From an uncultured Spirochaetota bacterium (GTDB lineage Bacteria > Spirochaetota > Spirochaetia > SZUA-6 > Fen-1364), in NCBI GenBank assembly GCA_963820525.1, contig CAWGAA010000002.1, forward strand, positions 320,001 through 384,000: 64,000 nt of DNA, written 5' to 3'. The notes beneath the pieces are model-generated. The model made no database searches. It was not told the DNA's origin and worked only from the letters and a program-made list of their open reading frames with translations. The position numbers and the translations under genes were made by a program. Below, one piece after another: positions 1,751 through 48,100 of this stretch; position 1 is the stretch's first letter; each line of letters opens with the position of its first letter.

Positions 1751-1756
1751 ATTCGC

Positions 1757-3477: not shown

Positions 3478-3499
3478 ACAATCAATAAGGAGGAATCAC

Positions 3500-5657: not shown

Positions 5658-5661
5658 GGGG

Positions 5662-6237: not shown

Positions 6238-6267
6238 GCTCCACCTCCAAGGTTTTAGAATCGGGGT

Positions 6268-6296
6268 AGAGTAGCCAAGATTAGGCGGAGGATCAA
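6268..6296 (-). promoter_or_regulatory. sigma70 promoter for bioY
   Basis: TTGATC-17 nt-TACTCT on the minus strand, followed by GGAGG SD. Confidence 0.6.
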
Positions 6297-6399
6297 GGGG
6301 ATGCGTCTCAGGGCAACGCGGGGTGCGGGACCTCCGTCGTCATGACGCGGCGCGCAGTATTGACATTCGCGCCCGGCCGATCAATCCTCGATTCCCAAC

Positions 6400-8651: not shown

Positions 8652-9757
8652 TGGCGCATCTCCCTCTTTCGAAGGGCCCGCACGGCGCGGACCATGACCT
8701 CATTGATCACGACGATGAACATGATCATGAGCCCCTGGATCGCGTACGTCACCGAGTTGGGCACCTTGGTGGAAAGCTGCAGTCCGTAGCCCGCCTGCTT
8801 GAGGAAGGCGAAGAGCAGGGACGAGAAGGCAACGCCGATGGGCGAGTTCTTGGCGATGAGCGAGATGGCGATTCCATCGAACCCGAGACCCGAAGCCAGG
8901 TTGTAGGTGTAGAACCCGCGGATGGCGAAGATCTCCTGGAGGCCGATCAGCCCCGCGATTGCTCCGGAGATGACGAACGCCGCGATCTGAACCCTGCCCA
9001 CCCGGATCCCCGCGTAGTGGGAGACATCGACGGAGGTCCCCACGGCCCGAATCTCGAAGCCCTGGCGCGTGCGGAACAGCAGGAACCAGATGGCCAGGCC
9101 CATGATCAGGGCGACAATGAGACTGTAGTCGAGGTACACGTACTCCGGAACCTTCCAGCCGATGGCCCGGAACAGGCCGTTGAGCTTTCCGAAGAGCGCG
9201 GTGGGCTGGAGCTTCGGCGTCTGCGGCTCGAGGCTCGCTCCCTTTTGCAGGCCGGACAGGGGGCCGTTGATCAGGAAGTTCACCAGCGCAAGCGCCACGT
9301 TGTTGAGCATGATCGTGGTGATGACCTCGTGGATCCCGCGCACGCTCTTCAGGATGGCGGGAACCAGGGCCCAAAGCGCGCCCCCGAGCATTGCGCAGAG
9401 CACCACAACGGGGATGTGGATGGGGGCCGGAAGATGGAGGTAGATCCCCGCCAGCGCCCCCGTCATGCCGCCAATGAAGTACTGGCCTTCCACCCCGATG
9501 TTGAAGACTCCCCCGCGGAAGGCGATGGCCACGGCGAGGCCGGCCAGGTAGTAGGGAATGGAAATGGAGAGCACGGAGGCCAGCTTGGCCGCGCTGGCCA
9601 GGCTGAACTTGTAGATGGCAACGAAGGCTTTCAGGGGGCTCTCCTGCAGGACGATGACGATGAGAACAAGCACGGCCACGGATGCGAAAAACCCGATGAA
9701 AGGCGCCGTCTGCTCCAGAAAAACGTACCGGTTGAGCCTGTCCCTACGCTGTCGCAT
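8648..9757 (-). CDS. Nucleoside/simple-sugar ABC permease (BMP-associated)
   Basis: FNIGVEGQ, HEVITTIMLN and GFDGIAI motifs. Confidence 0.9.
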   Translation of the reverse strand: MRQRRDRLNRYVFLEQTAPFIGFFASVAVLVLIVIVLQESPLKAFVAIYKFSLASAAKLASVLSISIPYYLAGLAVAIAFRGGVFNIGVEGQYFIGGMTGALAGIYLHLPAPIHIPVVVLCAMLGGALWALVPAILKSVRGIHEVITTIMLNNVALALVNFLINGPLSGLQKGASLEPQTPKLQPTALFGKLNGLFRAIGWKVPEYVYLDYSLIVALIMGLAIWFLLFRTRQGFEIRAVGTSVDVSHYAGIRVGRVQIAAFVISGAIAGLIGLQEIFAIRGFYTYNLASGLGFDGIAISLIAKNSPIGVAFSSLLFAFLKQAGYGLQLSTKVPNSVTYAIQGLMIMFIVVINEVMVRAVRALRKREMRQ

Positions 9758-11270
9758 TTTCCCTCTCCCCTGTCATAAAGAGACCGACCTCTTCTTTCAC
9801 GGCGTCGTCGTGGGCGAACTCCTTGATGATCCTGCCCTTGAAAATCACGCCGATCCTGTCGGAGAGCGAGAGAAGCTCATCGAGGTCCGCGGAAACAAGG
9901 AGCACCGCCTTGCCTTCGGCGCGGGCCTGGAGGAGCTGCCGGTGGATGAACTCGGTTGCCCCGATGTCCACGCCGCGGGTGGGCTGGGAGGCCACCAGGA
10001 GCCGGGGGCCGGCGCTGATCTCGCGGGCCACGACCGCTTTCTGCTGGTTTCCCCCCGAGAGGGCATTGGCCGGGGTTTCTTCGCTGGGAGTCCTGATGTC
10101 GAACCTCTCGATGATCCGGCGGCCGGCCTCGCGGATTGCGCGCATGTTGACGGTCTTGAATCGCGTGATGAACTGGGCGCGATGCATCTGCCCCAAAACC
10201 AGGTTCAAGGCCACTGAGAAGGGGAGAAGAAGTCCGTACTTCTGCCTGTCCTCCGGGATATGGGTGATGCCGCGGTCCCTCCGCTTCCTCACGCTCCATC
10301 GACGGATGCTCTCGCCGTCCAGGAGGATGTCCCCCGATTCGACCTCCAGGCCTTCTGCCACCGCCCGCACGAGCTCGCTCTGGCCGTTCCCCTCCACTCC
10401 GGCGATCCCGTAGATTTCTCCGGCGCAAACGCGAAAAGAAGCCCCATTGAGCGCGTTGTAGCCGCGGGGGCTCCTGATGACCAGGTCCTTGACCTCGAGG
10501 ACCGTCTTTCCCGGCGCCTGGGGGGCGCGATCCACCTCCAGGAGCACGGGCTTTCCAACCATCAGCTCAGCCAGGCGGGGCTTGGTGGCCTCCACCCGCG
10601 CCATGCTCTGGACGATGGCGCCGTGACGGATCACCGTGATCCTGTCCGCGATCTCCAGCACCTCGTCCAGCTTGTGGCTGATGAAGATGATCCCCTTTCC
10701 CTGCCTCTTCATCTCGCGGAAGGTCTTGAAAAGCTCCGATACCTCCTGGGGGGTGAGCACGGCGGTCGGCTCGTCGAACACGAGGATGGTGGCCCCGCGG
10801 AAAAGGATCTTGACGATCTCCACCCTCTGCTGGATCCCGACGGAGAGCTCCTCGACCTTTGTATCGAGATCTATGGAGATCCTGTTCTCCTCCATGATGG
10901 CCGAGATTTTTCTCCGCTGGCTCTGCGTGGACAGGATCCCGCCCCGATGCTCCTCTTCTCCGAGGATGATGTTTTCCAATACACTGAAGGGGGGAAAAAG
11001 CATGAAGTGCTGATGAACCATGCCGATCCCGTGATGGATGGCGTCCCGGGGGCCGCGGATGGAGATCCGCCCGCCCCGCACCGAGATGATCCCCGCGTCC
11101 GGCTTGTACAGGCCGTAGAGGATCTTCATCAGGGTGGTCTTTCCGGCCCCGTTCTCCCCGACCAGGGCATGAACCTCACCGGAGCTGAGGGTGAGGGAGA
11201 CGTGGTCGTTGGCCACCACCCCGGGGAAATGCTTGGTGATATCCTTCATTTCCAGGAGGAGCTCGGACAT
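9744..11270 (-). CDS. ABC ATP-binding protein with two NBDs (nucleoside/sugar type)
   Basis: [20 protein letters not shown] and QPTRGVD; start moved to ATG 11270 (MSELLLEM) after AAGGAG SD. Confidence 0.92.
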   Translation of the reverse strand: MSELLLEMKDITKHFPGVVANDHVSLTLSSGEVHALVGENGAGKTTLMKILYGLYKPDAGIISVRGGRISIRGPRDAIHHGIGMVHQHFMLFPPFSVLENIILGEEEHRGGILSTQSQRRKISAIMEENRISIDLDTKVEELSVGIQQRVEIVKILFRGATILVFDEPTAVLTPQEVSELFKTFREMKRQGKGIIFISHKLDEVLEIADRITVIRHGAIVQSMARVEATKPRLAELMVGKPVLLEVDRAPQAPGKTVLEVKDLVIRSPRGYNALNGASFRVCAGEIYGIAGVEGNGQSELVRAVAEGLEVESGDILLDGESIRRWSVRKRRDRGITHIPEDRQKYGLLLPFSVALNLVLGQMHRAQFITRFKTVNMRAIREAGRRIIERFDIRTPSEETPANALSGGNQQKAVVAREISAGPRLLVASQPTRGVDIGATEFIHRQLLQARAEGKAVLLVSADLDELLSLSDRIGVIFKGRIIKEFAHDDAVKEEVGLFMTGERENATA

Positions 11271-11286
11271 TATGGGCTCCTTTATG

Positions 11287-11316
11287 AAAAAAGGGCGGGA
11301 GCTGAGGCTCCCGCCC
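11287..11316 (-). terminator. Intra-operon hairpin with U-tract after the binding-protein gene
   Basis: Minus strand GGGCGGGAGC-CTCA-GCTCCCGCCC-TTTTTT. Confidence 0.8.
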
Positions 11317-11332
11317 TCGGTCTGCAAAGGCT

Positions 11333-12445
11333 CTATTTCAGTGTCTTCACCCACGCGGCCATGTCAGTGTTCTCATCGGGGACCGTGATCTTTCCCGCGA
11401 TGATCTGGGCCTTCAGGGCGTCCACCCGGGCCTTCACGTCGGCAAGAGCCGCCTTGTTGAACGAGTTCTCCGCGTAGCCTACCCCGTCCTCCTTGAGCCC
11501 GAAGACGCGGTAGCCGCCGGCGGTGCTCCCGTTGTCGATGAAGTCCTTGCCGCTGAGGAATACCGAGGTATCGACCCTCTTGATCATCGAGGTGAGGATC
11601 CACTTGGCGGCCGCCTTGGTTGCGGCGTCCTTCGAGGTGGCGTAGATGACGCCCTGGTCGGAGTCGACGCCGATGGAAAGCTTCTTGGCTTCCGATGCGG
11701 CCTTGAACAGCCCGTCTCCCGAGCCGCCCGCCGCGTGGAACACGACGGATGCGCCCTGCCTGTAGAAGTTGGAGGCGATGTCGTATCCGCCCTTCGGGTC
11801 GTTGAACGCGGTGGGATCCTTGCCGATGTACTGGGACAGGATCATGCCCGCCTTGCGGTAGGCGGGAGCAACGTACATGGCGCCGGCCTGATAGCCGTTG
11901 TCGAAGCGGTGGATCAGGGGGATATCCATTCCGCCGAGGAACCCGATCTTGACGTTCTTTGCCTTGTAGGCGGCGATGGCCCCGACGAGGAAGGAACCCT
12001 CGTTCTCCTTGAAGCTGAGGCAGGTGATGTTGCTCGAATCCGTGAGGTCGGGGATGTACCCGTCAATCAGGGCGAAGTGCGTATCGGGGAACTCCTTGGC
12101 CACCTTGGTCAGGGCATCCGTGAAAAGGAAGCCGACGCCGTAGATGAGCTGATACCCGTCCTCGGCCAGGGCTCTCATGAGGATCTCCCTGTCCTGGCCG
12201 CCCGCCTTGGGCTCCATGTACTTGATCTGGGTGTCCGTGCCGAAGCTCACCTTGTCGGGATCTCCATCGATCCAGCCGTTGTACGCTTTGGCCAGCTGGA
12301 CAAGGCCGCGGTAAGCGGAATCGTTGAAGGAGTTATCGCCCCTTCCTGCGAGGTCGAACACAAGGCCGATCTTCACCTTGGGATCCGCGCCGACCACGAG
12401 CACGGCGATGAGAAGCAATACCATCAGAATTACCAGTCTCTTCAT
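11333..12445 (-). CDS. BMP-family ABC substrate-binding protein (PnrA/TmpC-like)
   Basis: GRGDNSFN, FKENEGSFLVG, AAGGSG and IGVDSDQ motifs; signal peptide. Confidence 0.9.
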   Translation of the reverse strand: MKRLVILMVLLLIAVLVVGADPKVKIGLVFDLAGRGDNSFNDSAYRGLVQLAKAYNGWIDGDPDKVSFGTDTQIKYMEPKAGGQDREILMRALAEDGYQLIYGVGFLFTDALTKVAKEFPDTHFALIDGYIPDLTDSSNITCLSFKENEGSFLVGAIAAYKAKNVKIGFLGGMDIPLIHRFDNGYQAGAMYVAPAYRKAGMILSQYIGKDPTAFNDPKGGYDIASNFYRQGASVVFHAAGGSGDGLFKAASEAKKLSIGVDSDQGVIYATSKDAATKAAAKWILTSMIKRVDTSVFLSGKDFIDNGSTAGGYRVFGLKEDGVGYAENSFNKAALADVKARVDALKAQIIAGKITVPDENTDMAAWVKTLK

Positions 12446-12480
12446 GGGTTCCTCCTCTTCTTTCAGATTTTTTCTCGTTT

Positions 12481-12509
12481 ACTCTAAAGCCTGGGAAATG
12501 AGAAGTCAA
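12481..12509 (-). promoter_or_regulatory. sigma70 promoter for the BMP ABC operon
   Basis: TTGACT-17 nt-TAGAGT on the minus strand. Confidence 0.65.
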
Positions 12510-12582
12510 GCTTAAATGCCGCAAACCGTCGATTTGCGCCTCTTCATTAACATTCAGGCGCTACATGAATATGCAAATCCGA

Positions 12583-14625
12583 TCAGCCGCGGAGCAGAGC
12601 GAGGAACTCCTTTTCAGAGACGATCCGAACGCCGAGGGACCGCGCTTTCTCCAGCTTGCTTCCTGGGTTTTCCCCGGCAAGCAGGTGGGTGGTCTTGGAG
12701 GTGACGCTCGAGCCCGCCCGCCCGCCGCGCTTCTCCACCTCTTCCATGGCGAGCTCGCGGGGCTTGAACGTCTCGAAGCTGCCCGTCACGCACCAGGTCT
12801 GGCCCTCGAAGGTCCTGGGCAGCCCGCTCCGCAGGCGATCCCCCTCGCGGAAGTTGAGACCGGCCTTGCGAAGCCTTTCGATACGCCTGCGGATCTTCCG
12901 GCGGCGGAGCTCCGTGATGAGGATCTCCGCGGTCCGTTCTCCTATCCCGTGGATCTCCAGAAGCGGGGCCGGATCACCCGATTCGGCCAGGGAGAGGATC
13001 GAGTCGATGTCCCGGAAGCCCGCGCCGATCAGAAGCTCGGTCACCTTCTGTCCCACCTCGGGTATTCCCAGTGAGGGGAAGACGACCCGGAAGGGTTTCG
13101 CCTTGCTCTTCTCTATTCCCGCGCGGATCAGGGCGACCTTCTTTTCTCCGAAGCCGGGGACATCGAGGAGCCTGGCCGGATCGAAGGAGTAGATGTCATC
13201 GATGTCGCGCACGAGTCCCCTCTGGATGAGGACCTCAATGGTCTCGGGGCCGAGCCCTTCGATGTCCATCTGGCCCCTGTTCACGAAGAAGGCGAGCCTT
13301 CCCCGCACCTGGTCGGGGCAGGATGGATTTGGGCAGAAGTGGTGGGCGCCGAGCTTTTCAAGCGGCGTGGAGCAGGTCGGGCAGCGGGGCGGAAGCCTCC
13401 ACGTCGTGTTTCCTTCCTCGTTTTTCTCGATCACCCGCTCCACCGCCGGAATGACGTCGCCCCTCTTGGATACGGCGACGCGGTCCCCGACAGCGAGCTC
13501 CAGCATGTCGATGTACTCCTGGTTGTGGAGCGTGACGTTCTGGATGGTGGAGCCGGAAATGCGCACCGGCTCCACGCGCGCAACCGGGGTGATCCTTCCC
13601 GTGCGCCCGACCTGGGCCCCGATCGCCTTCACCGTGGTGACGCCTTCGGGGGACTCGAACTTGAAGGCGACGGCCCATCGGGGGTGATGACCGGTATACC
13701 CGAGCTTCTCGCGGACGGGTATCTCGTTCACCTTGATGACCAGGCCGTCGATATCGTAGTCCAGGCCCAGCCGCCGCTTTCGCTCCTCCTCGATGAAGCC
13801 GCCGATCTCCTCGATGCCCCCCACTCTCCAGCGGGGATGCTTCTCCCTCACTTCATCCCTCTGCCTGCCGTCCGAGAAGAAGCCGATGGTCGGATTGAGG
13901 CGGAAGCCGAGGCCCTCCAGCGCCTCGAGAATCTCGACGTGCGTGGCGAACGGCTCGGCAAAGAACCCTTCGTAGACGAAGATATCAAGCGGAACCCCGG
14001 CAACTTCCTTGCTCTTAACGCGCCTCAGGGTGCCCGAGGCGAGGTTCCGCGGGTTGGCATAGGGTTCTTCCATGCGTGCGTTGATCGAGGCGAAGAGGCT
14101 CCTGGCCAGGAAGATCTCGCCGCGGGCGGCGACGGTCCGCGGCGCCGACAGGCGGAGCGGAACGGCGCCGATCGTCTTGACGTTGCCCGTGACGTCGTTT
14201 CCCACAACGCCGTTTCCGCGCGTGACGGCGCGCGCAAGGAGCCCGTTTTGATAGTAGAGAACGATGGACGACCCGTCGATCTTCTCTTCGCAGACGAAAG
14301 ACAGCTCCCGGCCCGCATTGCGCCGGGTCTTCTCGATCCATGAGGAGAGGTCCTCGGCCGTGTAGGACTTGTCGAGGCTCAGCACCGGGATCGTGTGCTC
14401 GACCTCGGGCAGCTCCTGCGTGAGATCGGACCCGACGCGCTGCGTGGGGGAGTCGGGCGCTGCAAGCTCGGGGAAGCGCTTCTCGATGTCGATGAGCTCG
14501 TCGAACAGCCCGTCGTATTCCTGGTCCGATACCAGGGGTTTCGATTCGATGAAGTAGGCGTGCTGCAGCTCCCGGAGCTTCCGGGACAGCTCGCTGGTCC
14601 TCGTCTCCGCCTCTTTTTTCGTCAT
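12583..14625 (-). CDS. ligA: NAD-dependent DNA ligase
   Basis: EEKIDG adenylation motif, TRGNG, NPRN, QVGRTG, Zn finger CPTC..CPNPSC, HhH repeats, C-terminal BRCT. Confidence 0.97.
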   Translation of the reverse strand: MTKKEAETRTSELSRKLRELQHAYFIESKPLVSDQEYDGLFDELIDIEKRFPELAAPDSPTQRVGSDLTQELPEVEHTIPVLSLDKSYTAEDLSSWIEKTRRNAGRELSFVCEEKIDGSSIVLYYQNGLLARAVTRGNGVVGNDVTGNVKTIGAVPLRLSAPRTVAARGEIFLARSLFASINARMEEPYANPRNLASGTLRRVKSKEVAGVPLDIFVYEGFFAEPFATHVEILEALEGLGFRLNPTIGFFSDGRQRDEVREKHPRWRVGGIEEIGGFIEEERKRRLGLDYDIDGLVIKVNEIPVREKLGYTGHHPRWAVAFKFESPEGVTTVKAIGAQVGRTGRITPVARVEPVRISGSTIQNVTLHNQEYIDMLELAVGDRVAVSKRGDVIPAVERVIEKNEEGNTTWRLPPRCPTCSTPLEKLGAHHFCPNPSCPDQVRGRLAFFVNRGQMDIEGLGPETIEVLIQRGLVRDIDDIYSFDPARLLDVPGFGEKKVALIRAGIEKSKAKPFRVVFPSLGIPEVGQKVTELLIGAGFRDIDSILSLAESGDPAPLLEIHGIGERTAEILITELRRRKIRRRIERLRKAGLNFREGDRLRSGLPRTFEGQTWCVTGSFETFKPRELAMEEVEKRGGRAGSSVTSKTTHLLAGENPGSKLEKARSLGVRIVSEKEFLALLRG

Positions 14626-34374: not shown

Positions 34375-34896
34375 CTATAAAAGCCTTGAGAGAATATCGG
34401 CGGGAACGCTTTCACGGAGCCGGGGATAGGCTTCAATAATGCGGGCTATATCCGCCAGGTCTTTCTGCCGTTTGCTGCCCCGTCTTTCGGGATCCGAAGC
34501 CGCCCAGACTTTGCCCCGTAATACGTCCTCTATATCAGCGACGCTCATAACGCGTCCAAGCACTTCCTGTTTTCGCGCGTTCCCGATGAAGCCGGCGTAT
34601 TTGCGGTCCGTTTGTATCTGCACTCGGAGCTCCGATCCCGGAAGAGAGATGTTCAGGCTATGGGGGAAGGAAACGACCTTGAACAAGCTTCCCAATGATC
34701 GGGACAAATCTTCCATATTCTCGACCGCCACTACCACGTCGAGATCCAGGCTCACCAGGGGCTCGACGTATGCATTTACCGCCTGACCTCCGATGACGCA
34801 ATAGGGAATCTTTTTCTCTTCGAGGAAGCTGAGAAAGATGTCAAGAAAATCGCTCGTGTCCATTGTCACGATTCGCCTAAAGGTGGAAGCGAGCAT
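34375..34896 (-). CDS. Solo Pol-beta-superfamily nucleotidyltransferase (AbiEii/DUF6036-like)
   Basis: YCVIGGQAVNAY, SLDLDVV and K..A....R...K..KDLADI motifs; start uncertain (ATG 34896 or 34863); promoter TTGATC-17-TATGAT at 34952-34924. Confidence 0.75.
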   Translation of the reverse strand: MLASTFRRIVTMDTSDFLDIFLSFLEEKKIPYCVIGGQAVNAYVEPLVSLDLDVVVAVENMEDLSRSLGSLFKVVSFPHSLNISLPGSELRVQIQTDRKYAGFIGNARKQEVLGRVMSVADIEDVLRGKVWAASDPERRGSKRQKDLADIARIIEAYPRLRESVPADILSRLL

Positions 34897-35103
34897 GCCG
34901 GTTTCATTTGACCTCCGTGCAGTATCATAAGACGAGGCAGAGGAAGGATCAAGCGTGATATAGCTGCTCTGCGGCTGCCGCCGTTTTGAGAAGCGTCGGT
35001 GCAATGGAATAGGGGCGTCCGACCGCGTCGCGGTGCCTGGCCGCGCGTGCAGGTGCTCCCAATAGGTTTGACCACGGTGAGATCTCCGTATAGCCTACGC
35101 AAC

Positions 35104-36855
35104 ATGAACGCCGCCAGTAGCTTCCCTCCTCTTCGGATCATTGAAACTCTCAACGCATGCGCCTCCACGTCACGGATTCTCGCTTCCTTCGACGAGACGC
35201 TCTTGAAGTGGGCGGACAACGAAGAAAGCATGTATGAGCCGTTCCTCTGGCAGCTCGAGGAGCATGCGGATCTAGTGGGCTCGCTCACCGAAGAATGGGT
35301 TCACGCCACGGCCAATCAGTACGTAGCCGGAAAGTTATGCTCGGGCGGGCCCCTTCTTCTGCGCTGCATCCAGAGTCTTGGAAGCTCCCTCAAACCTGAT
35401 GCCTCCCGCCTGCTCGCTTCGTTCCTTGATACACCATGGAGGTACGCGCTTTTGAGCGTGAAGGGCGTGATCGCGGATACGCTTTTCTCCGTGCACGATT
35501 ATTTTTCAGGAGAAGAGCTTCTCCTCCAATCCGACAGTCTGGCGCACCTGAATAAGAGGGGAGTGCCGCTCGTTCTCACCCTGCTTTTCAACAACGGCCA
35601 TTGTTTTCAGACCTATGGGCCGCTGCACGCGCATATCGGTTTCGAGCCGTTCGATTTTCTCTTTTTCGCCCGGATGCTCGACTCCCGTCTGGCCGAGAGG
35701 AAAGGGCTTGGCGCTTGCATGGCACAGAACCCCATCCCTTTCTTTTTGCTTGATTGCGCTTCCCAGGTTCCTCCAATGGCCCACAATGGGAAGAGGGTTG
35801 TCTATTGCTTTCACTCGCTCAAGGCTCCCGGCTTCGATCTCGGAACTCTGCGCTCGCGCGGTCATTTCACCACAGAGAGCCGGGAATCAATGACGCGCCT
35901 CTGCCTGGACGGAAAGGACTCCCCATTCGATCTCGCACACGTCTATTACGACGGGAAGAACAGAGTTCTCGCCGTTCATACTTCGGGGATGGAAAACTAT
36001 GGCAGGCTCCGGGACCTTATTCTATCCGATATCGAGCTCCCCGAGCAGCCGTTCTGGATGTCCAGCGCGAATATGACCGCCACGGCCGGCCACGTTCTGA
36101 AAATGAAAGAACCCGAGGATGGCTTTTCGAGCGCGTTCGAAGAAGAGCCGACTCCGAAGGAAACGAAAGACCTTGAAACCATGAACGCCTTCATGCGGGA
36201 AGCGGCCGACCGTTCCAACTACGGTTTACCGATTTCCTACGAAGAGCTCGCTAGAAAACATGGTATCCCGCTTGAGACGGCCCGACAGGTACAAAAAATG
36301 ATGGATCGACAAGGGAAACGATTCTTCATTTCTCTCAAAGGGGGAATCCCGGGCTTCTCTCCGCCTCCTCCCGCCGTCAGAATGAAGATGAAGGGTCCGC
36401 TCGCTGAATCCGAGCTGTTTGTTTTCTCCTCCAGCGATCGCTCGCGGGAGCTGTTTCATGAGCACGATGCCGGTTTTACGGCCCTCGCCCGCACCGTGGG
36501 TAGAGAAGCTCCCGACTTTCAAGAAATGCCGGCCATCGTAGACGATCTCAGCCTGAAGCATTGGGTCGCGACCGACTCGACCATAGTCGCCTACTCGTTC
36601 ATTCTCTTCCTGGCGGCAGGAGAGGATTTCAAGCCGGCTGATGACTACGCTACCGAGATCCTGCGTCTTTTCTGGCAGGTCCTCATTCCGAACAAAGGGA
36701 AAAAGAGCATCCAGCGTTTTCTGGACAAGTACACGTCTTATTGCCAAAAGATCCTTGCCCCTGCCGGGCTTGTCGAGACCAAAGTGGGATCGGAGGGCAT
36801 GTGCCTCGCAAGGCGTACGCGGTTCTTCGAGGAGTGGGTGCAAATTGCCAAGTAG
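35104..36855 (+). CDS. Large hypothetical protein (~583 aa)
   Basis: Long ORF in lower-GC DNA; promoter TTGACC-17-TAGCCT (35068-35096) points to ATG 35104; HTH-like YEELARKHGIPLETARQ. Confidence 0.75.
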   Translation: MNAASSFPPLRIIETLNACASTSRILASFDETLLKWADNEESMYEPFLWQLEEHADLVGSLTEEWVHATANQYVAGKLCSGGPLLLRCIQSLGSSLKPDASRLLASFLDTPWRYALLSVKGVIADTLFSVHDYFSGEELLLQSDSLAHLNKRGVPLVLTLLFNNGHCFQTYGPLHAHIGFEPFDFLFFARMLDSRLAERKGLGACMAQNPIPFFLLDCASQVPPMAHNGKRVVYCFHSLKAPGFDLGTLRSRGHFTTESRESMTRLCLDGKDSPFDLAHVYYDGKNRVLAVHTSGMENYGRLRDLILSDIELPEQPFWMSSANMTATAGHVLKMKEPEDGFSSAFEEEPTPKETKDLETMNAFMREAADRSNYGLPISYEELARKHGIPLETARQVQKMMDRQGKRFFISLKGGIPGFSPPPPAVRMKMKGPLAESELFVFSSSDRSRELFHEHDAGFTALARTVGREAPDFQEMPAIVDDLSLKHWVATDSTIVAYSFILFLAAGEDFKPADDYATEILRLFWQVLIPNKGKKSIQRFLDKYTSYCQKILAPAGLVETKVGSEGMCLARRTRFFEEWVQIAK

Positions 36856-36953: not shown

Positions 36954-39900
36954 ATGGATCGGATTCAAAAAGGCAGCATCATCAGGGGCCCCGCAACCCC
37001 CGAGCCAGTTGAGGTCAAGCTTGTCGAAAAGGTGGGCGGCTATCTTCACATAGTCGGTGTGGGTACTCTTTCGGGGAACCATTCCGATTTCCTCATCGCG
37101 GCGGAAGATATGGACTCATACTCTTCTGATAACGCAGAGAAAGCTTTCTCTGAGGAAGCGTGGAAGGTGTTCCTGGGATTGGAGACGATCCGGTACCGCT
37201 TCGCATCTCTCTACGATCCACTGCTCGCGGTCAACACATCGAAGATCGATCCCCTGCCTCATCAAATCGAGGCCGTCTACGGCTACATTCTCAAGCTTCC
37301 CCGGATCCGTTTCCTGATCGCGGACGATCCCGGCGCCGGAAAGACGATCATGGCCGGGCTTGTCATCAAGGAGCTCAAGCTGCGGCGGGTGATCGACCGC
37401 GTTCTCATTGTCTGTCCCGGGCACCTGAAGGACCAGTGGAGAAGGGAATTATCCGAACGGTTCGAAGAGAAGTTCATCGTGATCGACAGGGGCATAATGG
37501 ATTCGCTCTACGGTGAGAACGCATGGAACAGGGAGAAGCAAATCATCACCTCCATCGACTTCGCCAAACGCGACGAGATATTGCCGTCTATCGCCGCGGC
37601 GCACTTCGACTTGGTCATCGTGGATGAAGCGCACAAGATGAGCGCGTACCAATACGGCGACAAGACCGAAAAGACCGGCCGCTACCGTCTGGGGGAAACG
37701 CTCTCCAGGATCTCGGATCACTATCTCTTCCTCACGGCGACCCCGCACCGTGGGGATCCGGAAAGCTTCCGGATGTTCCTGGACCTGCTGGAGCAGGGGT
37801 TCTTCGCCACGAGCGAGATGGTGCACGAATCCGTCCGCAACCGCGACAACCCTCTCTTCATACGAAGGATCAAGGAAGACCTGAAGGATTTCGAGGGCAA
37901 GCCCCTGTTCCTTCCGCGCTACGTGAAAACGATCGCATACGACCTGGGCACGAGATCGCCGGCGGAAAAGGACCTTTACAATGCCCTGTCCGAATACGTC
38001 GTGACGCAATACAACCTCGCTCTCTCGCGCGACAAGAAAAGAAACATCGCATTCGCCCTTGTCATCCTCCAGCGCAGGCTCGCCTCCAGCAGCTACGCCC
38101 TCCTGAAATCCCTGGAACGCAGGAAAGGACGCCTGGAGGAGCTTCTTAAAGGTGCGCAGGAAAGGTTGAGCTTCTCGGGGGAAATGCTCGATTTGGATTC
38201 CGCGGAAGATCTGAGCGAGGAGGAGAGGTGGCGGGAGGAGGAGATCTGGGAGTCCCTCAGCGTGGCGGAGAACAGGCAAGAGCTGGAGGATGAAATCTCC
38301 ACGCTGGAAAACCTCATTTCTCAGGCAAGGGCGATCATCCATGGGGAGAAAGAGATCAAGCTCATGGAGCTGAAAAAAACCGTCCACCGTCTGGAGACGG
38401 AAAATCCGAAGAAGGAGGAGCGAAAGATCCTGATTTTCACGGAATCGAGGGACACCCTGGATTACCTGGAAAGAAAGATGAAGGAATGGGGGTTCACGAC
38501 CAACGTCATCCACGGCGGCATGAAACTGGAGGAAAGGGTCCGGGCGGAAAGCGTGTTCAAGAACGAGACGGACATCCTGGTGGCCACCGAAGCGGCGGGG
38601 GAAGGCATCAACCTCCAGTTCTGCAACCTCATGATCAACTACGATCTTCCATGGAACCCCAACCGCCTGGAACAGAGGATGGGCCGCATCCACAGGTACG
38701 GCCAGACGCGGGAAGTGTGGGTATTCAATCTCGTGGCCGAGGATACCCGCGAGGGCAGGGTGCTGAAGAAGCTTTTCGAAAAGCTTGACGAGATCAGGAA
38801 GGCGATGGGAAGCGACAAGGTCTTCGACGTGATCAGCGACGTTCTCCCCAACGTCAACCTCTCCCAGCTCATGATGGACGCCGCGGCCAGGACCCGCAGC
38901 GTCGACGACATAATCGGGGAGATGGACGTGACCGTGGACGAGGAGTACATCCGCCGGGTCAAGGAGGAGCTGGGGGAGAGCCTCGCCACGCACTTCATCG
39001 ACTACACCCGGATAAAGGAGATGGCGAGAAAGGCCGAGGAATATCGCCTGATTCCTGAGTACACGGAAAACTACTTCCGCAAGGCTTTCCAGAGGGCTGG
39101 CGGGAGCGTCAGGGAGACGCGGGAAGGTTTTCTCGCGGTGGATTCCGTGCCGCACGCCATCCGCAAGGCGAGCGAGCGGGACGAAATCCTTAAGTCTTTC
39201 GGCGCCGTGCTCAAGCGGTACCCCAAAATGACGTTCGACAAGAAGGTGGCCTTCCACCATGCCGACGCTGAGTTTGTTTCCTTCGGTCACCCTCTTTTCG
39301 AGTCCGTCATGGCCTGGGTGGAGGCCGAGCTTATGGACTCGGTGCAGAACGGCGCGGTTTTCCTGGATCCGGACAGGCTCATGGACGGGCACAACCTTTT
39401 CTATGAGGGAGAGATCAGAGACGGCAATGGTGAGACCGCGGGCAAGAGGCTTTTCGCCTTGTATGCGAGGGACGATGACATGAAAGAAGTCCCTCCCTCC
39501 TTGCTTTGGGACCTCGCGGAAGGCACGGCGGCCGACCGCAATGAAACGCTGGACAGGGAAGGCCTGAAGTCGAGGGCTTCCGAAGCGGTGATAGCCTCTC
39601 TGGAAAAATACAGAACGGAGATCTCGAACGAACGTACGCGCCAGGCCGCGATCAAGAAGAAGTACGGCGTCAAATCTCTGGAGACCCTCATCCTGAAGCT
39701 CGACGGCGAGCTGATCCCGCTGAAAGACAGGCAGATGCGGGGTGAGAACGTGGACCTCGCGATACGGAACAAGGAGGAGAGAAAGGCGGAATACGAGCGC
39801 GCGTTGGCGGATCTCGAGCGCTTCATCGTGCGGGAGCAGAACCTCGTGATGTCAATGCCCCGGTTTCGCGGGATCGTGAGGGTGAAGCCCGGGACAAAGC

Positions 39901-40298
39901 CCGTTACCGACGCCGCCGCGGATCCCGAGGTGGAAAAGGCGGGCATGGACGCCGCGATGAGCTACGAGCGCAAAGAGGGAAGGGAGCCGGAGGACGTGTC
40001 GAGCGAGAACCTCGGGTTCGACATCCGGTCCAGGGAAAAGACCGGCGGATGCCGCTATATCGAAGTGAAGGCGAGGTCTGATGTGGGAGCGGTGGCCCTC
40101 ACCCAGAACGAATGGTTCAAGGCAAAGCGCTTCGGTGACGACTACTATCTCTACGCCGTCATGAACGCAAAGAAATTGCCGCAGCTGTTCCCGATCCGAA
40201 ACCCCGCATCCACGCTCCGCGCCGATGAAAGAGTAGAGGTGGTGCGCTACGTGATCGGGGCGGACCAGATTACGGAGAAAGCGGGGAAAAGGGATTGA
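36954..40298 (+). CDS. SNF2-family helicase with C-terminal DUF3883 PD-(D/E)xK nuclease-like domain
   Basis: [33 protein letters not shown] and [12 protein letters not shown]-terminal DVS..GFDI..YIEVK..TQNE. Confidence 0.92.
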
Positions 40299-43009
40299 CC
40301 GAAGCGCCGCGAGGCCCCCGTTTCATCGAAGAATCCTTTCCCGTCAAGGAAGTGGGCGCGGAGTCCGCGCGGGAGAAGAACATCCGGCACGGCCACATCT
40401 CCACGCTTCACATCTGGTGGGCGCGCCGCCCTCTGGCCTCTTCCAGGGCGACGGTGTATGGGGCCCTGGTGCCGACGCCGGAGACGCCCGATGACGTACG
40501 GAACACCAGGCAATTCATCATCGATTTCTCCAAGTGGGAGAACTCCCTCAATCCAACCATGATTCAAAGGGCCCGCCGGGACATCCTTGCGGCCGGCGGC
40601 GGAAGGTCTCCCCGGGTGCTCGATCCGTTCGGCGGCGGGGGAGCCATTCCCCTTGAAGCGCTCAGGCTGGGATGCGAGACGTACTCGGGAGACCTCAATC
40701 CCGTGGCGGTGCTGATCCAGAAATGCACCCTGGAGTACCCGCAAAAGTTCGGAAAGCAGGGCCCGGTCGTGCAGGAAGGCGAGGTGATCGGAAGCGCGCA
40801 CAAGCATGCTGTCAACGCGGAGAACAGGCTCCTGGAGGACGTGAAGAGATGGTCCGGCAGGGTCCTGAAGGAAGCGAAAGCCGGGCTTTCCCGATTCTAC
40901 CCCTCCGATCCCGACGGCTCAACTCCTGTTGGCTATATCTGGGCGCGGACCATCCCCTGCCAGAATCCCGCCTGCGGGGCGGAGATTCCCCTCATGCGCC
41001 AGTTCTGGCTGGCAAAGACGTCAAGTAAAAAGGTGAGCCTGTTCCCCTTCGTCAAGGCCGGCAGCGTCCTTTTCCGCATCGTGGGGGACGCATACAAGGA
41101 GATGCCTGCAGGCTTCGACCCGGAGGAGGGAACGGTTTCCCGGGCCGTGGCGAGGTGCCCGGTCTGCGGGTCCATGTCGGACGACACGACAACACGAAAG
41201 CTATTCCAGGAAGGGAAAGCCGGGCAGAGGATGATCGCCGTTGTCCTACTTAAGGAAGGACGGACGGGAAAAAGGTACAGGATATCGACTGAAGAGGATG
41301 AGGCCGTGTTCCTGGGTGCGGAAAAGGCGCTGGAGGGGAAGAGCGCCCTGCTCCGGGAAGAGTGGGGCATGGAGCCTGTACCGGATGAGCCGCTTCCGCC
41401 CGCGCGCACGCTCGGATTTAGAATACAGAACTACGCCATGAACACCTGGGGCGACCTGTTCAACTCACGGCAGAAGCTGGCGCTCATCATCTTTGCGGAC
41501 GCGGTGCGCCGCGCGTACAATGGGATGATCGCCGAGGGGTATGAGGCGGAGTACGCCAGAGCGGTAGTGGGGTATTTAGGAATATTGGTGGATAGGCTGG
41601 CAGATAAATCCGGCGTTCTTGTAAGGTATAACTCAGCTGCAGAGAAAATTGAAGGTGTCTTTGGTCGTCAGGCACTCCCAATGTTATGGGATTATGTTGA
41701 GACCAATCCCTTCACGGATGTCGGCTGGCACAACATGCAGGAGTGGATCGAACAGATCATCCAGCACTGCTCCCAAATCGAGCAGCCGGCGCACGTAACT
41801 CAATCTTCCGCAATCGCCCTGCCGTACGCCGACTCGTTCTTTGACGCCGTGTTCACCGATCCTCCCTACTACGATAATGTTCCCTATTCCTATCTCTCCG
41901 ATTTCTTCTACGTCTGGCTCAAGCGGACGATCGGAGACGCCTTTCCGGAGCTTTTTTCCACGCCCCTCACGCCCAAGAAAAGCGAGATCGTCGCGTACTC
42001 GGAAGGCGTCGGAGGATTCGAGGAGGGCAAGCGCCGGTTCGAGGAGATGCTGAAAAAATCGTTTCAGGAAATCCACAGGGTATTGAAACCCGACGGCGTT
42101 TCCCTGATCGTGTATGCCCACAAGTCCACGGCCGGATGGGAGACCCTCATCAACTCGCTCCTCGATTCGGGCCTCATCATGACGGGCGCCTGGCCGATCA
42201 ACACGGAGAAAGTAGGAAGGATGCGCTCTCAAGAATCCGCGGCCCTCGCATCCTCCATATACATCGTATGCCGCAAGATGACCCGCAAGCCCACGGGGAT
42301 TTACAGCGAAGTGAAGGAGGCGCTCGTCAATCACCTCGATCTAAAATTGGAGAAGCTCTGGGGAGAGGGAATCGGCGGGGCGGATTTCTTCATCGCGGCA
42401 ATCGGCTCGGCCATAGAAGTGTTCGGGAAGTTCGAGAAGGTCATCGACTTCGAGGGCACCACTGTGCGCGCGGACAGGCTGCTGGAGGACATTCGCCTGA
42501 TCGTCACCGATTTCGCGGTCCGCCGAATATTGAAAAACGGCTTTGCGGGGGAAATAACCGACCTGACGCGGTTCTACGTCCTCTTCCGCTGGGAGTTCGG
42601 AGAGTCGAGGGTCGGGTTCGACGAGGCGCGGAAGCTCGCCCAGAGCTGCGGAATCGATCTGGCCCTGGAATGGAACCGGGGCGGATTCATAATGAAGGAG
42701 AAAGAGCTCATACGCGTCATCGGCCCCCAGGAAAGGAAAGCGGAGAAGCTGAAGGACTCCACGGAGCTCATCGACGTGCTCCACCGCTGCCTGCTCCTGT
42801 GGGAGAAGAGCCGGAGGGACGAGATGATCCAGGCCCTCACGGAGTCCGGTTTCGGCAAGAGCGAGGCTTTCTTCCGCGTGGCCCAGGCGGTCTCTGAGAC
42901 GCTGCCGACGGAGAGCAGGGAGAAGAAGCTCCTGGACGGGTTCCTCTCGGGAAGGGAGAGGCTTCAGGAAACCGCGCGGCGAAGCTCTCGGCAGGGGGAG
43001 CTTTTCTAG
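40295..43009 (+). CDS. DUF1156 adenine-specific DNA methyltransferase
   Basis: [10 protein letters not shown], motif I DPFGGGG, motif IV DPPY, Cys pairs CQNPAC and CPVC; TTG start overlapping the helicase stop. Confidence 0.92.
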
Positions 43010-43039: not shown

Positions 43040-44254
43040 ATGAATGTTATCGCCAAACCGGCGCGGACCGTACCGAGGATCGAATACCTTCGTGTGCAGA
43101 ACTACCGTGCCTTGTGCGACATCGAACTCAAGGGATTGAAGCCTCTCACTGTTTTTCTCGGGCCTAATGGCAGTGGGAAATCCACGGTCTTCGATGTGTT
43201 CGCTTTCCTGGCTGAGTGTTTCACGATCGGGCTTCGTCGGGCATGGGACAAGCGGGGGCGCTTCAAGGAGCTTCGCACCAGAGGCCAGGAAGGACCCATC
43301 GTCATTGAGCTGAAATACAAGGAGAGCCCGAGCATTCCGACAATCACCTACCACATGGCGATAGACGAAGGCGACGGCGGGCCGTATATGGCCGAGGAAT
43401 GGCTCAAATGGAAAAGACAGAGCTATGGTAAGCCTTTCAATTTCCTCGATTTCCGGGGAGGTGCGGGAGAAGTCATTTCCGGGGAACTGCCCGACGAGAC
43501 GGACAATCGGGTATCCGAAAAACTCGAATCTCCCGAGCTTCTCGCCGTGAGCACACTCGGACAGCTTGCGAAGCATCCCCGCGTGAGCGCTCTGAGAAGG
43601 TTCATTACGGGATGGCATCTGTCGTATCTGAGCGCGGACGCCACACGCGGCCATCCCGAAGCCGGTCCTCAGGAGCGGCTTTCAACGACGGGGGACAACC
43701 TGCCAAACGTTATTCAGTATCTCAAGGAACAGCATCCTGAACGTCTTGAGCGGATATTAAAGACCCTTTCCTCAAGGATTCCCCGTTTGGAGAAAGTCAG
43801 CGCGGAAACCATGCAGGACGGAACCCTTCTCCTCCAGATCAAGGACGCTCCCTTCGAACGGCCGGTGCTTGCCCGTTTCGCTTCGGACGGCACGTTGAAA
43901 ATGCTCTCATACCTGACGCTCCTCTACGATCCAACTCCGCCGGAGCTTATCGGCATCGAGGAGCCCGAGAACCATCTCCATCCCAGACTTCTTCCGGAGC
44001 TTGCCGAGGAATGTAGAATCGCATCGAGCGGGACACAGCTTCTGATTACCACCCATTCTCCGTTTTTCGTGAACGGCCTGCAACCCGAAGAGTTGTGGGT
44101 CTTATTCCGTGACGAAAAAGGCTTTACGGGAGCGCGCTGCGCCGCGGACATGAAGGGGGTCAAGGAGTTTATGGAGGAAGGCGCCCAGCTTGGCTATTTG
44201 TGGATGGAAAGCCATTTCGAAGTCGGGGATCCGCTCGCTAAACCGAAGGACTGA
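43040..44254 (+). CDS. Soluble ABC/AAA_21-type ATPase
   Basis: [19 protein letters not shown] signature, [10 protein letters not shown] and TTHS; no TM partner. Confidence 0.9.
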
Positions 44255-44262
44255 CCGGGCGC

Positions 44263-44892
44263 ATGAGAATCGAAGTGATAGTCGAAGAACCTTCCGCCGA
44301 AGCCGCCTTGCAGAATATCTTGCCGAAAATGATTCCGGTTGGATCAAGCTTCAAGATTCATGTGCATCAGGGCAAGCAGGACCTGCTCTCAAAGCTTGTG
44401 AGCCGCCTACGCGCGTACCGCAAGCACATTGCCAAAGATGACAGGCTTATGGTTCTCGTGGACAGAGACAGGGAGAATTGCCACAGCTTGAAGAAAAAAA
44501 TGGAAAACGCAGCAGAAAAGGCGGGGCTTGTATCGAAATCGAAAGCGAAAGGGAAGACCTTTCACGTCATGAACAGGCTCGCAATTGAGGAGTTGGAGGC
44601 CTGGTTTTTCGGGGATCCGCAGGCTATTTCGGAAGCATTCCCGAAAATACCGGTATCCGTCTTCAATAGAGAGCCATATCGGATTCCCGATTCTATCAAA
44701 GGAGGAACGGCGGAAGCCCTCGAGAGGGTGCTCAAGCAGTACCGATACTATCCCAGCGGCATGCCCAAGATCGAGGTTGCTCGCGCGATCTCCTCACGCA
44801 TGGATCCTTCGCGTAACATTTCGAAAAGCTTCAAAGTATTCAAGAAAGGGATCGAAGTCCTCACGGGCTGTAAGGAAGCAATCCATGATTGA
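44263..44892 (+). CDS. DUF4276-family protein (TOPRIM-like, putative nuclease)
   Basis: N-terminal VIVEEPS, HQGKQDL, LVDRD, EELEAWF and N.SKSF. Confidence 0.8.
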   Translation: MRIEVIVEEPSAEAALQNILPKMIPVGSSFKIHVHQGKQDLLSKLVSRLRAYRKHIAKDDRLMVLVDRDRENCHSLKKKMENAAEKAGLVSKSKAKGKTFHVMNRLAIEELEAWFFGDPQAISEAFPKIPVSVFNREPYRIPDSIKGGTAEALERVLKQYRYYPSGMPKIEVARAISSRMDPSRNISKSFKVFKKGIEVLTGCKEAIHD

Positions 44893-45205
44893 CCGCCAGG
44901 AAATGCTGGATAAAGCCATACGCATTATCGTTTCAGCGTCGGATCCCGATAGAATCATCCTGTTCGGATCTCGCGCGCGGGGCGAGGTTTTCGCCGGCGG
45001 CGATTACGATCTTTTCGTTCTGAAGAAGGGCATGCGGGATCCACGGAGGGTCGCGCAGAAAATCTACATGGGTCTCGCCGGCTTCGGCGCTCCGGTCGAC
45101 GTCATTGTGGAAGACGAGGAGAAATACGAGCGGCTGAAAGACGATCCGTACCTCATCTACCACGCGATCGCGGCGGAAGGCAAAGTCATATATGAAAAAT
45201 CGTGA
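44885..45205 (+). CDS. Minimal nucleotidyltransferase (MNT)
   Basis: ILFGSRARG, DYDL, VDVIV and EGKVIYE; start ATG 44885 (MIDRQEML), 106 aa. Confidence 0.9.
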   Translation: MIDRQEMLDKAIRIIVSASDPDRIILFGSRARGEVFAGGDYDLFVLKKGMRDPRRVAQKIYMGLAGFGAPVDVIVEDEEKYERLKDDPYLIYHAIAAEGKVIYEKS

Positions 45206-45587
45206 ACACGCGGTTGAATGGCTGCACAGGGCGAGAAGCAGCCTTCTTCAGGCCAGGCTTGGCAGATCGGAGCCTGGGATACTCATTGAAGATCTCTGTT
45301 ATCACGCGCAGCAGGCGGTCGAAAAGGCCCTGAAAGCGGTCTGTATTCATATAGGAATAGATGTGCCCAAGGTTCACGACATTGGGTTTTTAATCGATCT
45401 GCTCGCCGCCAATTCCATGCATCTTCCCGAAGAGCTCAACATCGCGCGAACGCTGACGGTCTATGCCGTCACCACCCGCTATCCCGGCGATTACCCTCCC
45501 GTGTCCGAGGCGGATTACGCTTCAGCGATTGAGACGGCGGAGAATGTAGTCCGCTGGGCTTCCCGGGAAATCGAGGGAGCTTTATGA
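45192..45587 (+). CDS. HEPN-domain protein (MNT partner)
   Basis: W..RA, CYHAQQAVEKALKA, KVHDI and TRYPG. Confidence 0.9.
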   Translation: MKNREHAVEWLHRARSSLLQARLGRSEPGILIEDLCYHAQQAVEKALKAVCIHIGIDVPKVHDIGFLIDLLAANSMHLPEELNIARTLTVYAVTTRYPGDYPPVSEADYASAIETAENVVRWASREIEGAL

Positions 45588-48100
45588 AGCCTTTCCACAC
45601 TGTTGCCGTTCCTCACCGGGATATCCTCGAAGGCCGTCTCACGATGGACGTTTTCGCGGCGGACCTCTGGCAGGTGTGCCGTCGCCAGGGTCCCGACGAG
45701 TACCGCGACGCGGATACCTTCTTTCGAAAGACGTTCGTCACGCAAGGGTTGCAGAACCTTCTTGATATCGTGGAGAAGAGGCTTGCGGGCCGGGGCGGGG
45801 ATCCCGTCATACAGATCCAGACGCCTTTCGGCGGGGGGAAGACCCATTCGCTCATCGCGATGTACCACAAGGCCGTTGAATGGCGCGCGAAGCAGGTCGT
45901 GATGGTCGGAACGGCCCCCGGCGGACAAAAAACCCTTTGGGGGTGGCTCGAAGAGCAGCTTACGGGGAAGATCGACGCGCTTTCCGGTCCCGTATCACCC
46001 GGGAAAATCGCCCTTCTCAAGCTCCTCGAACAGCACCAGCCCGTGCTCATTCTGATGGACGAAATCCTCGAGTACGCGGTGAAGGCGGCAGGCACGAAAG
46101 TCGGAGAGAGCACTCTCGCCGCCCAGACTCTCGCCTTCATACAAGAGCTGGGAGAAACGGTGAGCGGCCTTGACAAAGCGTGTCTTGTCGTCACGATCCC
46201 TTCCAGCGTCGCTCCCCTGTACGACCAGAACGCCGAAAGGCTATTCCTGGGATTGCAGATGGTGGCGGGGCGGATCGAGAAGATCTACACCCCCATCGCC
46301 GACAGCGAAATCGCGAGCATCATCCGGAGCCGGCTTTTCAGCTCGTTCGATCAGCCGAAGGCGAAGGAGGTCGTGGACTCTTTCATCGAATACGCGGAAA
46401 GAGAAGGCATTCTTCCGTTCGGCTCGAGCGCGGGCGAATATCGCGACCGGTTTCTCGCGTCGTATCCGTTCATGCCCGAAGTGGTCGATGTTCTCTATCA
46501 GAGGTGGGGCAGCTTCGGTACTTTCCAGAGAACCCGGGGAGTGCTGAGGCTTCTCTCATTGGTCGTGCATACACTCAGGAATAGCGCCAAGACGTATATC
46601 GGTCTTTCGGACTTCGATCTGGGCAACCAGGAAATACGGCAGGAGCTGCTGAAGCATATAGGATCGGAGTTCAACAGCGTGATCGCCTCGGATATCACGG
46701 AGCCCTCCAGCGGCGCCCAAAAAGTCAACGGTTCCCTTGGAAACGCGTATCGAGGGCTGTCCCTGGGCACGAGCGCCGCGACATCGATTTTCCTCTATTC
46801 CTTTTCCGGCGGGCACGAACGGGGGGCCACGCTGGCCGAAGTTAAAAGAGCCGCGACCACCACGGAGAATCCCGCGAGCGTGGTCGCCGAGGCCGTGGAG
46901 CAGCTCAAGGCACGGCTTTTCTTCATGCAGAGCGTCGGAGAAAGACTCTTTTTTTCAAACAAGCCCAATCTCAATAAGACGCTTTTAAACCGGATCGAGA
47001 ACCTTGACGACAGCGAGGTGATCGAAGCCGAACGGGAGCTGCTCATATCGTGCCTTTCGCGCCAGAAGCTCAAGGTAACCGTCTGGCAGGATGATCCCGC
47101 TCAAATCCAGGACACCGATTCGCTTCAGCTCCTGATATTGAGAGACCGCCAGGAGGAGGTGATGAAGGACATTATTCGGAACAAGGGCCAGACTCCCCGG
47201 GTGTACGGCAACGCCCTTTTTTTCCTCTATCCCCACGACAATGAGAAAACCGCATTATCCGCAGCGCTCAAAAAAAGAATGGCGTACGAATCGATAGAGG
47301 AAGATCAGGATTTCCCGCTGACCGAGGAACAGCGACGGGAGCTCGCGAAAGTGCTGAAGAAGTGCAGGATAAGCGCGAACGAAGCGCTTCGCAGAGCGTA
47401 TCGAATGGCGGCAGTCCCGTCGAAAGACGGCTTGCGTGAAATAGACCTCGGAGTACCGACCTACGGCGAGAATAAAAACATTGACGACGGGGTATACGAC
47501 AAGCTGCGGTCGGAAGGGCTTCTGTTGGAGAACCTGGCTCCTCTGGTGATCCGTGAGAAATATCTGGCCGGAAAAGAGTATGTGAGCACCGAGGCCATTT
47601 TCCAATCCGCTCTGAAGACCCCGGGAGAACCCAGGCCAATCTCGAAATCGGCAATCGAAAAAGGAATCCGTGAAGGCGTGAAAAGCGGCCTCTTCGGCTT
47701 GGGAGAGTTGGAAGGGGTTGATGCGAAGTGTCTGTTCTTTCAGACGGAACCTTCAGTAGCGTTCGGCGGCAAGGAAGTGCTTATCTGCGACGCGAAATGC
47801 GTGGAACAGAAGAAAAGCGAGCCGATTCAAGCGCCCTTGTCTCCATCCGGAGCACCGACCGCCAAGGTGTCTTCCCACCCGCAGCCGGGTCGAAGCGGCA
47901 AAACCTCGATCGTGATATCGTTTCGAGTGCCCAAGGGCAAAGTCAGCTCCATTATGGGCGTCATGAACTACCTCCAAAGCAGGTTCGAAGGTCTGGATAT
48001 TACGTTAACAGCAAGCGGCGGCGAGATCACGCTTCAAGAATACGACGACAAAGTCATGGAAGCGTTCCGACAGGCGGGAATAGAGGTGAGAGAGGGGTGA
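45584..48100 (+). CDS. DUF499-family AAA+ ATPase
   Basis: PHRDI, FAADL, QTPFGGGKTH, LMDE, YPFMPE and FQRTRGVLRLL; ATGA overlap with the HEPN stop. Confidence 0.9.
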   Translation: MKPFHTVAVPHRDILEGRLTMDVFAADLWQVCRRQGPDEYRDADTFFRKTFVTQGLQNLLDIVEKRLAGRGGDPVIQIQTPFGGGKTHSLIAMYHKAVEWRAKQVVMVGTAPGGQKTLWGWLEEQLTGKIDALSGPVSPGKIALLKLLEQHQPVLILMDEILEYAVKAAGTKVGESTLAAQTLAFIQELGETVSGLDKACLVVTIPSSVAPLYDQNAERLFLGLQMVAGRIEKIYTPIADSEIASIIRSRLFSSFDQPKAKEVVDSFIEYAEREGILPFGSSAGEYRDRFLASYPFMPEVVDVLYQRWGSFGTFQRTRGVLRLLSLVVHTLRNSAKTYIGLSDFDLGNQEIRQELLKHIGSEFNSVIASDITEPSSGAQKVNGSLGNAYRGLSLGTSAATSIFLYSFSGGHERGATLAEVKRAATTTENPASVVAEAVEQLKARLFFMQSVGERLFFSNKPNLNKTLLNRIENLDDSEVIEAERELLISCLSRQKLKVTVWQDDPAQIQDTDSLQLLILRDRQEEVMKDIIRNKGQTPRVYGNALFFLYPHDNEKTALSAALKKRMAYESIEEDQDFPLTEEQRRELAKVLKKCRISANEALRRAYRMAAVPSKDGLREIDLGVPTYGENKNIDDGVYDKLRSEGLLLENLAPLVIREKYLAGKEYVSTEAIFQSALKTPGEPRPISKSAIEKGIREGVKSGLFGLGELEGVDAKCLFFQTEPSVAFGGKEVLICDAKCVEQKKSEPIQAPLSPSGAPTAKVSSHPQPGRSGKTSIVISFRVPKGKVSSIMGVMNYLQSRFEGLDITLTASGGEITLQEYDDKVMEAFRQAGIEVREG

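Follow-up and report, generated by a model that had tools for sequence, protein, structure and literature searches.

Behind the DNA methyltransferase gene of an operon from an uncultured Spirochaetota bacterium lie a gene for an ATP-binding cassette (ABC) ATPase and a gene for a TOPRIM-like protein, and the question arises whether such a pair guards the system in which it is embedded or acts on its own. The operon is part of the 64,000-nucleotide stretch that was analysed here as a whole (the window; contig CAWGAA010000002.1 of assembly GCA_963820525.1, positions 320,001 to 384,000). The initial annotation had favoured the first possibility, namely a distinct, PARIS-like sensor-effector that fires when a restriction-like core is inhibited. 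Judged by sequence, the pair is almost certainly the catalogued system HEC-01 ("Hma-embedded candidate 01") inside an Hma operon, and both of its proteins are much nearer to MAD3-MAD4 of the MADS system than to proteins of the AriA/AriB type. From our point of view, it is rather probable that the pair forms a complex of the MAD3/4 kind that is autonomous and would, on infection, bind DNA and nick it, with Hma serving as its insertion hotspot.

HEC-01 was defined by Payne et al. as an ABC ATPase plus a TOPRIM protein embedded in Hma (bioRxiv 10.1101/2024.01.29.577857; PADLOC-DB v2), and the copy in the window has the same gene order, the same Hma setting and PADLOC matches over the whole length of both proteins. 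HEC-01A scores 557 bits, with residues 12-397 on profile positions 2-404 of 406, and HEC-01B, whose gene follows 8 bp behind, scores 274 bits; all of the 14 PADLOC families matched by this DUF4276 protein are HEC-01 models, and the HEC-01B model is in turn matched by 118/118 of its homologues. We see no difference of kind, except that the window copy shares its slot with an MNT-HEPN cassette and that its closest relatives mostly stand alone or lie in type I restriction-modification (RM) operons. Both genes are intact and all motifs that had been named for them (43040..44892) are conserved, which confirms the ABC ATPase and the TOPRIM-like pattern in the 209-aa protein as first described. Since the pair is the catalogued HEC-01, it can, however, not be regarded as a distinct new sensor-effector. 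The suspected defence context is borne out, and the host operon is a complete Hma system with hmaA, hmaB and hmaC all present as best PADLOC matches. This operon is not the restriction-like system of Gao that the earlier wording ("restriction-like core") suggests, as the Gao models of NCBIfam stay far under cut-off and neither a PLD domain nor a DUF3780 gene was found.

The structure model of HEC-01A (predicted local distance difference test score 84.3) predicts that the ATPase is compact and free of any long coiled coil; in it, insert 1 is beta-rich and consists mostly of strands (87-146) and insert 2 comprises two short helices (221-231 and 233-246) and a hairpin, residues 198-218 being of low confidence. 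HEC-01B is predicted to adopt the TOPRIM fold that had been proposed for it. It carries the acidic motifs E8/E9, D67-x-D69 and E110-x-E112 and an OLD-type TOPRIM metal site, as was also noted for HEC-01 in the accessible text of Payne et al. (10.1101/2024.01.29.577857), and DUF4276 has already been called a TOPRIM domain with a glutamate and a DxD motif, with Mad4 named as a homologue (PMC12065111). In OLD nucleases and Gabija GajA, by contrast, a single fused chain contains both the ATPase and the TOPRIM part.

For a measure of the kinship with MAD3-MAD4, loci with MAD4-like or DUF4435 proteins were taken from the same phylum (Spirochaete), and among these six pairs exceeded the NCBIfam cut-offs for both MAD3 (6/6) and MAD4 (6/6). 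In hhalign, the DUF4276 profile aligned with the six MAD4 proteins end to end over 183 columns (probability 83%, E 8.5e-6) and with five DUF4435 proteins over 50 columns (probability 4%, E 0.011); the HEC-01A ATPase profile aligned with the six MAD3 proteins over 374 columns (E 4.6e-37) and with four DUF4435-linked ATPases over 69 columns (E 1.6e-8), both DUF4435-based sets being small and divergent. A hidden Markov model built from HEC-01A homologues likewise gave 80-118 bits for the six MAD3 proteins and 12-25 bits for the four DUF4435-linked ATPases. The acidic motifs correspond as well: E9 and E110-L-E112-x-W of HEC-01B fall on the A-D and E-L-E-x-W columns of the MAD4 family in hhalign, and the MAD4 columns aligned with E9, E110 and E112 match the published pocket residues D12, E119 and E121 (PMC13662399, available in part). 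D67-R-D69 lies at the strand end that carries D-x-E in MAD4, with an hhalign offset of two, and a counterpart of MAD4 K164 is not evident in HEC-01B. Because MAD3-MAD4 is much closer in both proteins, PARIS can no longer be taken as the nearest model.

Apart from this full-length likeness, the two systems share the design of a separate ABC ATPase gene and a TOPRIM-like gene of ~210 aa. Nevertheless, the window pair is not a MAD3-MAD4 module in the strict sense. HEC-01A reaches 115.3 bits against the NCBIfam model of MAD3, its best NCBIfam match, where the cut-off is 420; HEC-01B has no NCBIfam match at E<=0.01 and no PADLOC mad4 match at E<=0.1, nor was such a match found in its own genome; and the pair is surrounded by hmaA, hmaB, MNT, HEPN and hmaC instead of the eight-gene mad operon with mad1/2/5-8. 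As the cut-offs for MAD3 and MAD4 were both failed, we use MAD3-MAD4 as a functional model and not as a classification.

According to the accessible parts of the published work (PMC13662399), MAD3-MAD4 is a 2:2 complex that MADS cannot do without. MAD4 by itself is insoluble; the complex gains ATPase activity and nicks and linearises plasmids with Mg/Mn on assembly, and the proteins are toxic only on co-expression. Mutants of the MAD4 pocket had modest effects, and the authors left the link between ATP and cleavage open. MAD3-MAD4 may also occur as a free-standing system. Two genomes carry pairs over both NCBIfam cut-offs with the rest of the MADS operon absent from the 20-kb windows (L219:10237-12134 and L220:9164-11079), and a third pair (L221) lies near a type IIG-like methyltransferase and a helicase.

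PARIS shares the two-gene design of ABC ATPase and TOPRIM protein and the folds of both with the window pair, but consists, in the available text of PMC11464382, of a DUF4435 effector (AriB) and of AriA, whose helical inserts (the IS1 helices and the IS2 helical bundle) build the hexamer and bind Ocr, with sensing pores that are poorly conserved. Further hallmarks of PARIS are the release of AriB and the cleavage of tRNA. The effector of the window is a DUF4276 protein, so that the initial annotation was correct in setting the pair apart from PARIS proper; DUF4435 is absent from the 17 Pfam families matched by the 118 homologues at E<=0.1 and was not found in the own genome. The likeness of HEC-01A to the solved AriA is limited to residues 281-348 with the C-terminal motifs (E 0.0018) and is weaker than that to PtuA or OLD, and its model contains neither AriA-type helical inserts nor the helical bundle of the hexamer. 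With neither the effector nor these inserts, the pair was not assigned to PARIS.

If the pair were tied to Hma, its relatives should be found there. We considered 160 related loci, namely the best 80 of 396 genome loci with the DUF4276 protein and the best 80 of 498 metagenome loci with the ATPase. The two genes were adjacent in 152 of these, and 0/160 had a match to HmaB or HmaC with the same queries that detect Hma at 28-34% identity. Of the 65 loci that were well flanked (4 kb on both sides), 17 had a core gene of a type I RM, BREX, type III or type IIG system within 4 kb (35 across all 160) and 48 had none in view, where other RM families may be missed as the RM seeds were derived from the 160 loci themselves. 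By the same rule, 0.9% of the own genome is equally near a core, a rough background from one genome. RM operons are therefore favoured landing sites for the pair, but not required ones.

A PADLOC scan of the same-strand neighbours in the best 80 of 396 genome loci (88 + 92 proteins) returned 11 HsdR, one further HsdS, one complete BREX system (brxC-pglX-pair-pglZ-brxL), one type III methyltransferase and one type IIG gene ~6 kb off, and no other RM core was found in this set. The pair lies between hsdS and hsdR in six loci (L001, L012, L027, L031, L067 and L078), as it does in the best plasmid match (L102, positions 1022-12879, from the Meiothermus plasmid NZ_CP021131.1), and, in L030:3-13278, it is inserted at the pglX-pglZ junction of a type I BREX operon. 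The plasmid operon carries three cargos, i.e. a DUF262 gene, a DUF4433 plus macro-domain pair and HEC-01. At another locus (L005:10627-13683), HEC-01 is followed by an 85-aa remnant of the HsdR N-terminus and then by a Ppl gene, which suggests that this cassette left a type I RM operon and took a piece of hsdR along. On a tree of the ATPases (with 34 RM-linked rows, 47 standalone ones and the window itself, made with a quick method, with loci of short flanks or incomplete ATPases left out and some rows being near-copies), the label RM-linked or standalone changes 20 times, at least six of them on strongly supported branches.

The same freedom is seen from the side of Hma. A sample of 400 genomes of the phylum yielded two closest Hma operons, of which the nearest has an empty hmaB-hmaC junction and the next carries only MNT-HEPN there. 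In 24/24 genomes of the same family (60-99% complete), no match to the ATPase was found at E<=1e-40. The cassette and the Hma core thus move independently, and the position behind the methyltransferase, which had been read as a sign that the pair fires on inhibition of the core, lends no support to that idea. In another family of the same order, 14/24 genomes have one to three such ATPases, which form two groups at ~63-67% and 40-45% identity.

Embedded genes are known from 931 of 1,485 Hma systems, and Hma is thus a published insertion hotspot (10.1101/2024.01.29.577857, accessible text), from which AAA_21 two-gene inserts between hmaB and hmaC have also been reported in Halomonas (PMC11232893, partial text). 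HEC-01 itself is widespread. In the literature searched, which covered few subscription papers, we found no mechanistic study of HEC-01, its trigger or its substrate, and the published anti-phage tests of other members disagree: the accessible text of Payne et al. reports no defence for the member assayed (10.1101/2024.01.29.577857), whereas that of a cold-seep study reports that one HEC-01 alone protected against one or more of the phages T7, T5 and T4 (10.1101/2024.09.26.614923; PMC12881386).

Since both proteins resemble MAD3-MAD4 far more than PARIS, a free-moving ATPase-nuclease complex is likely, rather than a guard of the surrounding operon. The HEC-01 cassette would then occupy a cargo slot between hmaB and hmaC, where the known hotspot could provide shared expression and transfer. 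By analogy to MAD3-MAD4, the HEC-01A ATPase would form a dimer that carries two TOPRIM subunits, giving a compact 2:2 complex the activity of which would depend on assembly. During infection, this complex would attach to double-stranded DNA and nick it in an Mg-dependent manner, probably with no need for the Hma core. Least certain are the last two steps: the nuclease might be gated by the binding of ATP or by a cue of infection that the ATPase reads, and the outcome might be damage to phage DNA or cell death. The account builds on what is observed, i.e. the family identity, the intact motifs, the tight pairing, the freedom of the relatives from Hma and the kinship with MAD3-MAD4.

Several other explanations can be imagined. 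The pair could sense anti-restriction proteins as PARIS does: its ATPase would bind DNA mimics, for instance Ocr, and would then release the TOPRIM subunit, which would cut RNA or DNA of the host and halt the cell. The pair could thereby back up any RM-like system without contact to its core. The repeated landing in RM and BREX operons, far above the background and on scattered branches, keeps this idea alive, but we hold it to be unlikely: apart from the missing DUF4435 and the profile comparison in favour of MAD3-MAD4, the likeness to AriA is confined to one short region, the model lacks the helical bundle from which AriA forms its hexamer with the pores that bind Ocr (PMC11464382, partial text), 48 of the 65 well-flanked relatives have no restriction core and none of the 160 lies beside Hma. 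Unlike the AriA pores, moreover, the ATPase is highly conserved, with 62-79% identity across many bacterial phyla and archaea and no hypervariable block, although a set chosen by score inflates conservation. In the stricter version that the initial annotation had in mind, the pair would be silenced by the Hma complex itself and would fire when a phage protein disables Hma. Its place directly behind hmaB and the PrrC precedent named by Payne et al. (10.1101/2024.01.29.577857, accessible text) fit this version, yet a guard that needs its cognate core should travel with that core, and as none of the 160 relatives was found beside HmaB or HmaC although their ATPases are ~62-83% identical, we consider it very unlikely.

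Alternatively, just as MADS depends on MAD3-MAD4, the pair could join whichever methylation-based core hosts it and nick unmethylated invading DNA together with that core. That its closest characterised relative is essential there (PMC13662399, available in part), that the seven genes of the window are packed on one strand and that relatives sit within hsdS-hsdR and pglX-pglZ operons and a plasmid RM operon would be in line with such an accessory role. The host cores are mutually unrelated and most well-flanked copies have none, however, Hma operons without the pair exist and the HmaA nuclease itself gives defence (PMC11232893, partial text), which makes this role distinctly improbable. The least probable reading, to which we give hardly any weight, is that the pair has no anti-phage role and represents a selfish or DNA-maintenance element that rides mobile regions; the patchy spread within its own family, the enrichment in defence operons and the one positive plaque test (10.1101/2024.09.26.614923, accessible text) all speak against it.

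One could further speculate, with considerable doubt, that the HEC-01 clade represents a roaming universal guard, in which a conserved MAD3/4-like ATPase would recognise some conserved trait of the DNA mimics that act in anti-restriction and would have been recruited repeatedly to unrelated methylation-based systems (type I RM between hsdS and hsdR, BREX between pglX and pglZ, type III, IIG and Hma) in bacteria and archaea. If true, this would amount to a second, non-PARIS route of anti-anti-restriction with a DNA-cutting output, and it would explain the role of MAD3-MAD4 inside MADS.

The locus itself is ordinary, because the literature already contains the pair, its Hma setting and the backup hypothesis: a guard or backup role has been put forward in general terms for embedded pairs of ABC ATPase and TOPRIM protein, with PrrC as the named precedent (10.1101/2024.01.29.577857, accessible text), and Hma, as defined in PMC8565338, has been filed as Type-1 BREX-related with such pairs as proposed backup effectors (PMC12839542, both in part). 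What is new is the measurement of how much closer the pair is to MAD3-MAD4 than to PARIS, together with the context counts for the clade. As a template, the recent MAD3-MAD4 structure is preferable to PARIS; it predicts a complex that is compact, has a 2:2 composition and nicks DNA, and the native, intact operon of Hma and HEC-01 is a setting in which the guard idea can be tested with or without the core.

Table 1. Position of the HEC-01 pair and of the genes that surround it in the window.
Feature	Coordinates	Strand	Basis
HEC-01A, soluble ABC ATPase (AAA_21), 404 aa	43040..44254	+	PADLOC HEC-01A, Pfam AAA_21
HEC-01B, DUF4276 TOPRIM-fold putative nuclease, 209 aa	44263..44892	+	PADLOC HEC-01B; predicted fold
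hmaA, SNF2 helicase with C-terminal NOV_C (DUF3883-type) nuclease, host operon	36954..40298	+	PADLOC HmaA 683.6 bits; Pfam Helicase_C, SNF2-related, NOV_C
hmaB, DUF1156 DNA methyltransferase, DPPY motif in translation, host operon	40295..43009	+	PADLOC HmaB 436.6 bits; Pfam DUF1156
Minimal nucleotidyltransferase (MNT), start overlapping the DUF4276 stop, second embedded cassette	44885..45205	+	Pfam Polbeta, NTP_transf_2
HEPN, partner of MNT, stop overlapping the hmaC start	45192..45587	+	Pfam HEPN 84.1 bits
hmaC, DUF499 AAA+ ATPase, host operon	45584..48100	+	PADLOC HmaC 371.9 bits; Pfam DUF499

The block hmaA-hmaB-HEC-01A-HEC-01B-MNT-HEPN-hmaC (Table 1) is held together by overlaps or gaps of <=30 bp throughout, and its GC content is 0.53-0.62 per kb, against ~0.63 across the first 28 kb of the window. 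With its helicase, methyltransferase and DUF499 ATPase, the host operon has the components of the DUF499-centred, Type-1 BREX-related systems. The MNT reaches 29 bits against the NCBIfam model of MntA, which is under the cut-off of 60. The MNT-HEPN cassette (44885-45587, +) has a parallel in a related Hma operon (L198:8054-8819), in which HEC-01 is absent and the hmaB-hmaC junction holds a gene resembling MNT next to one that probably encodes a HEPN protein. The own genome contains another type I RM locus, separate from the Hma block and ~115 kb away from it (C2:481305-488299), which would be something that a trans-acting guard could back up.

Directly upstream of hmaA, an open reading frame of 618 aa (34999-36855, +) has no Pfam, PADLOC or NCBIfam match; its nearest ESM Atlas cluster is an unnamed family of 619 aa with 205 members (score 0.90). 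A further open reading frame of 209 aa (34375-35004, -), situated where the defence block ends on the left, shows a weak AbiEii match (E 3.4e-4) and a GG...DLD pattern, which we take to be nucleotidyltransferase-like.
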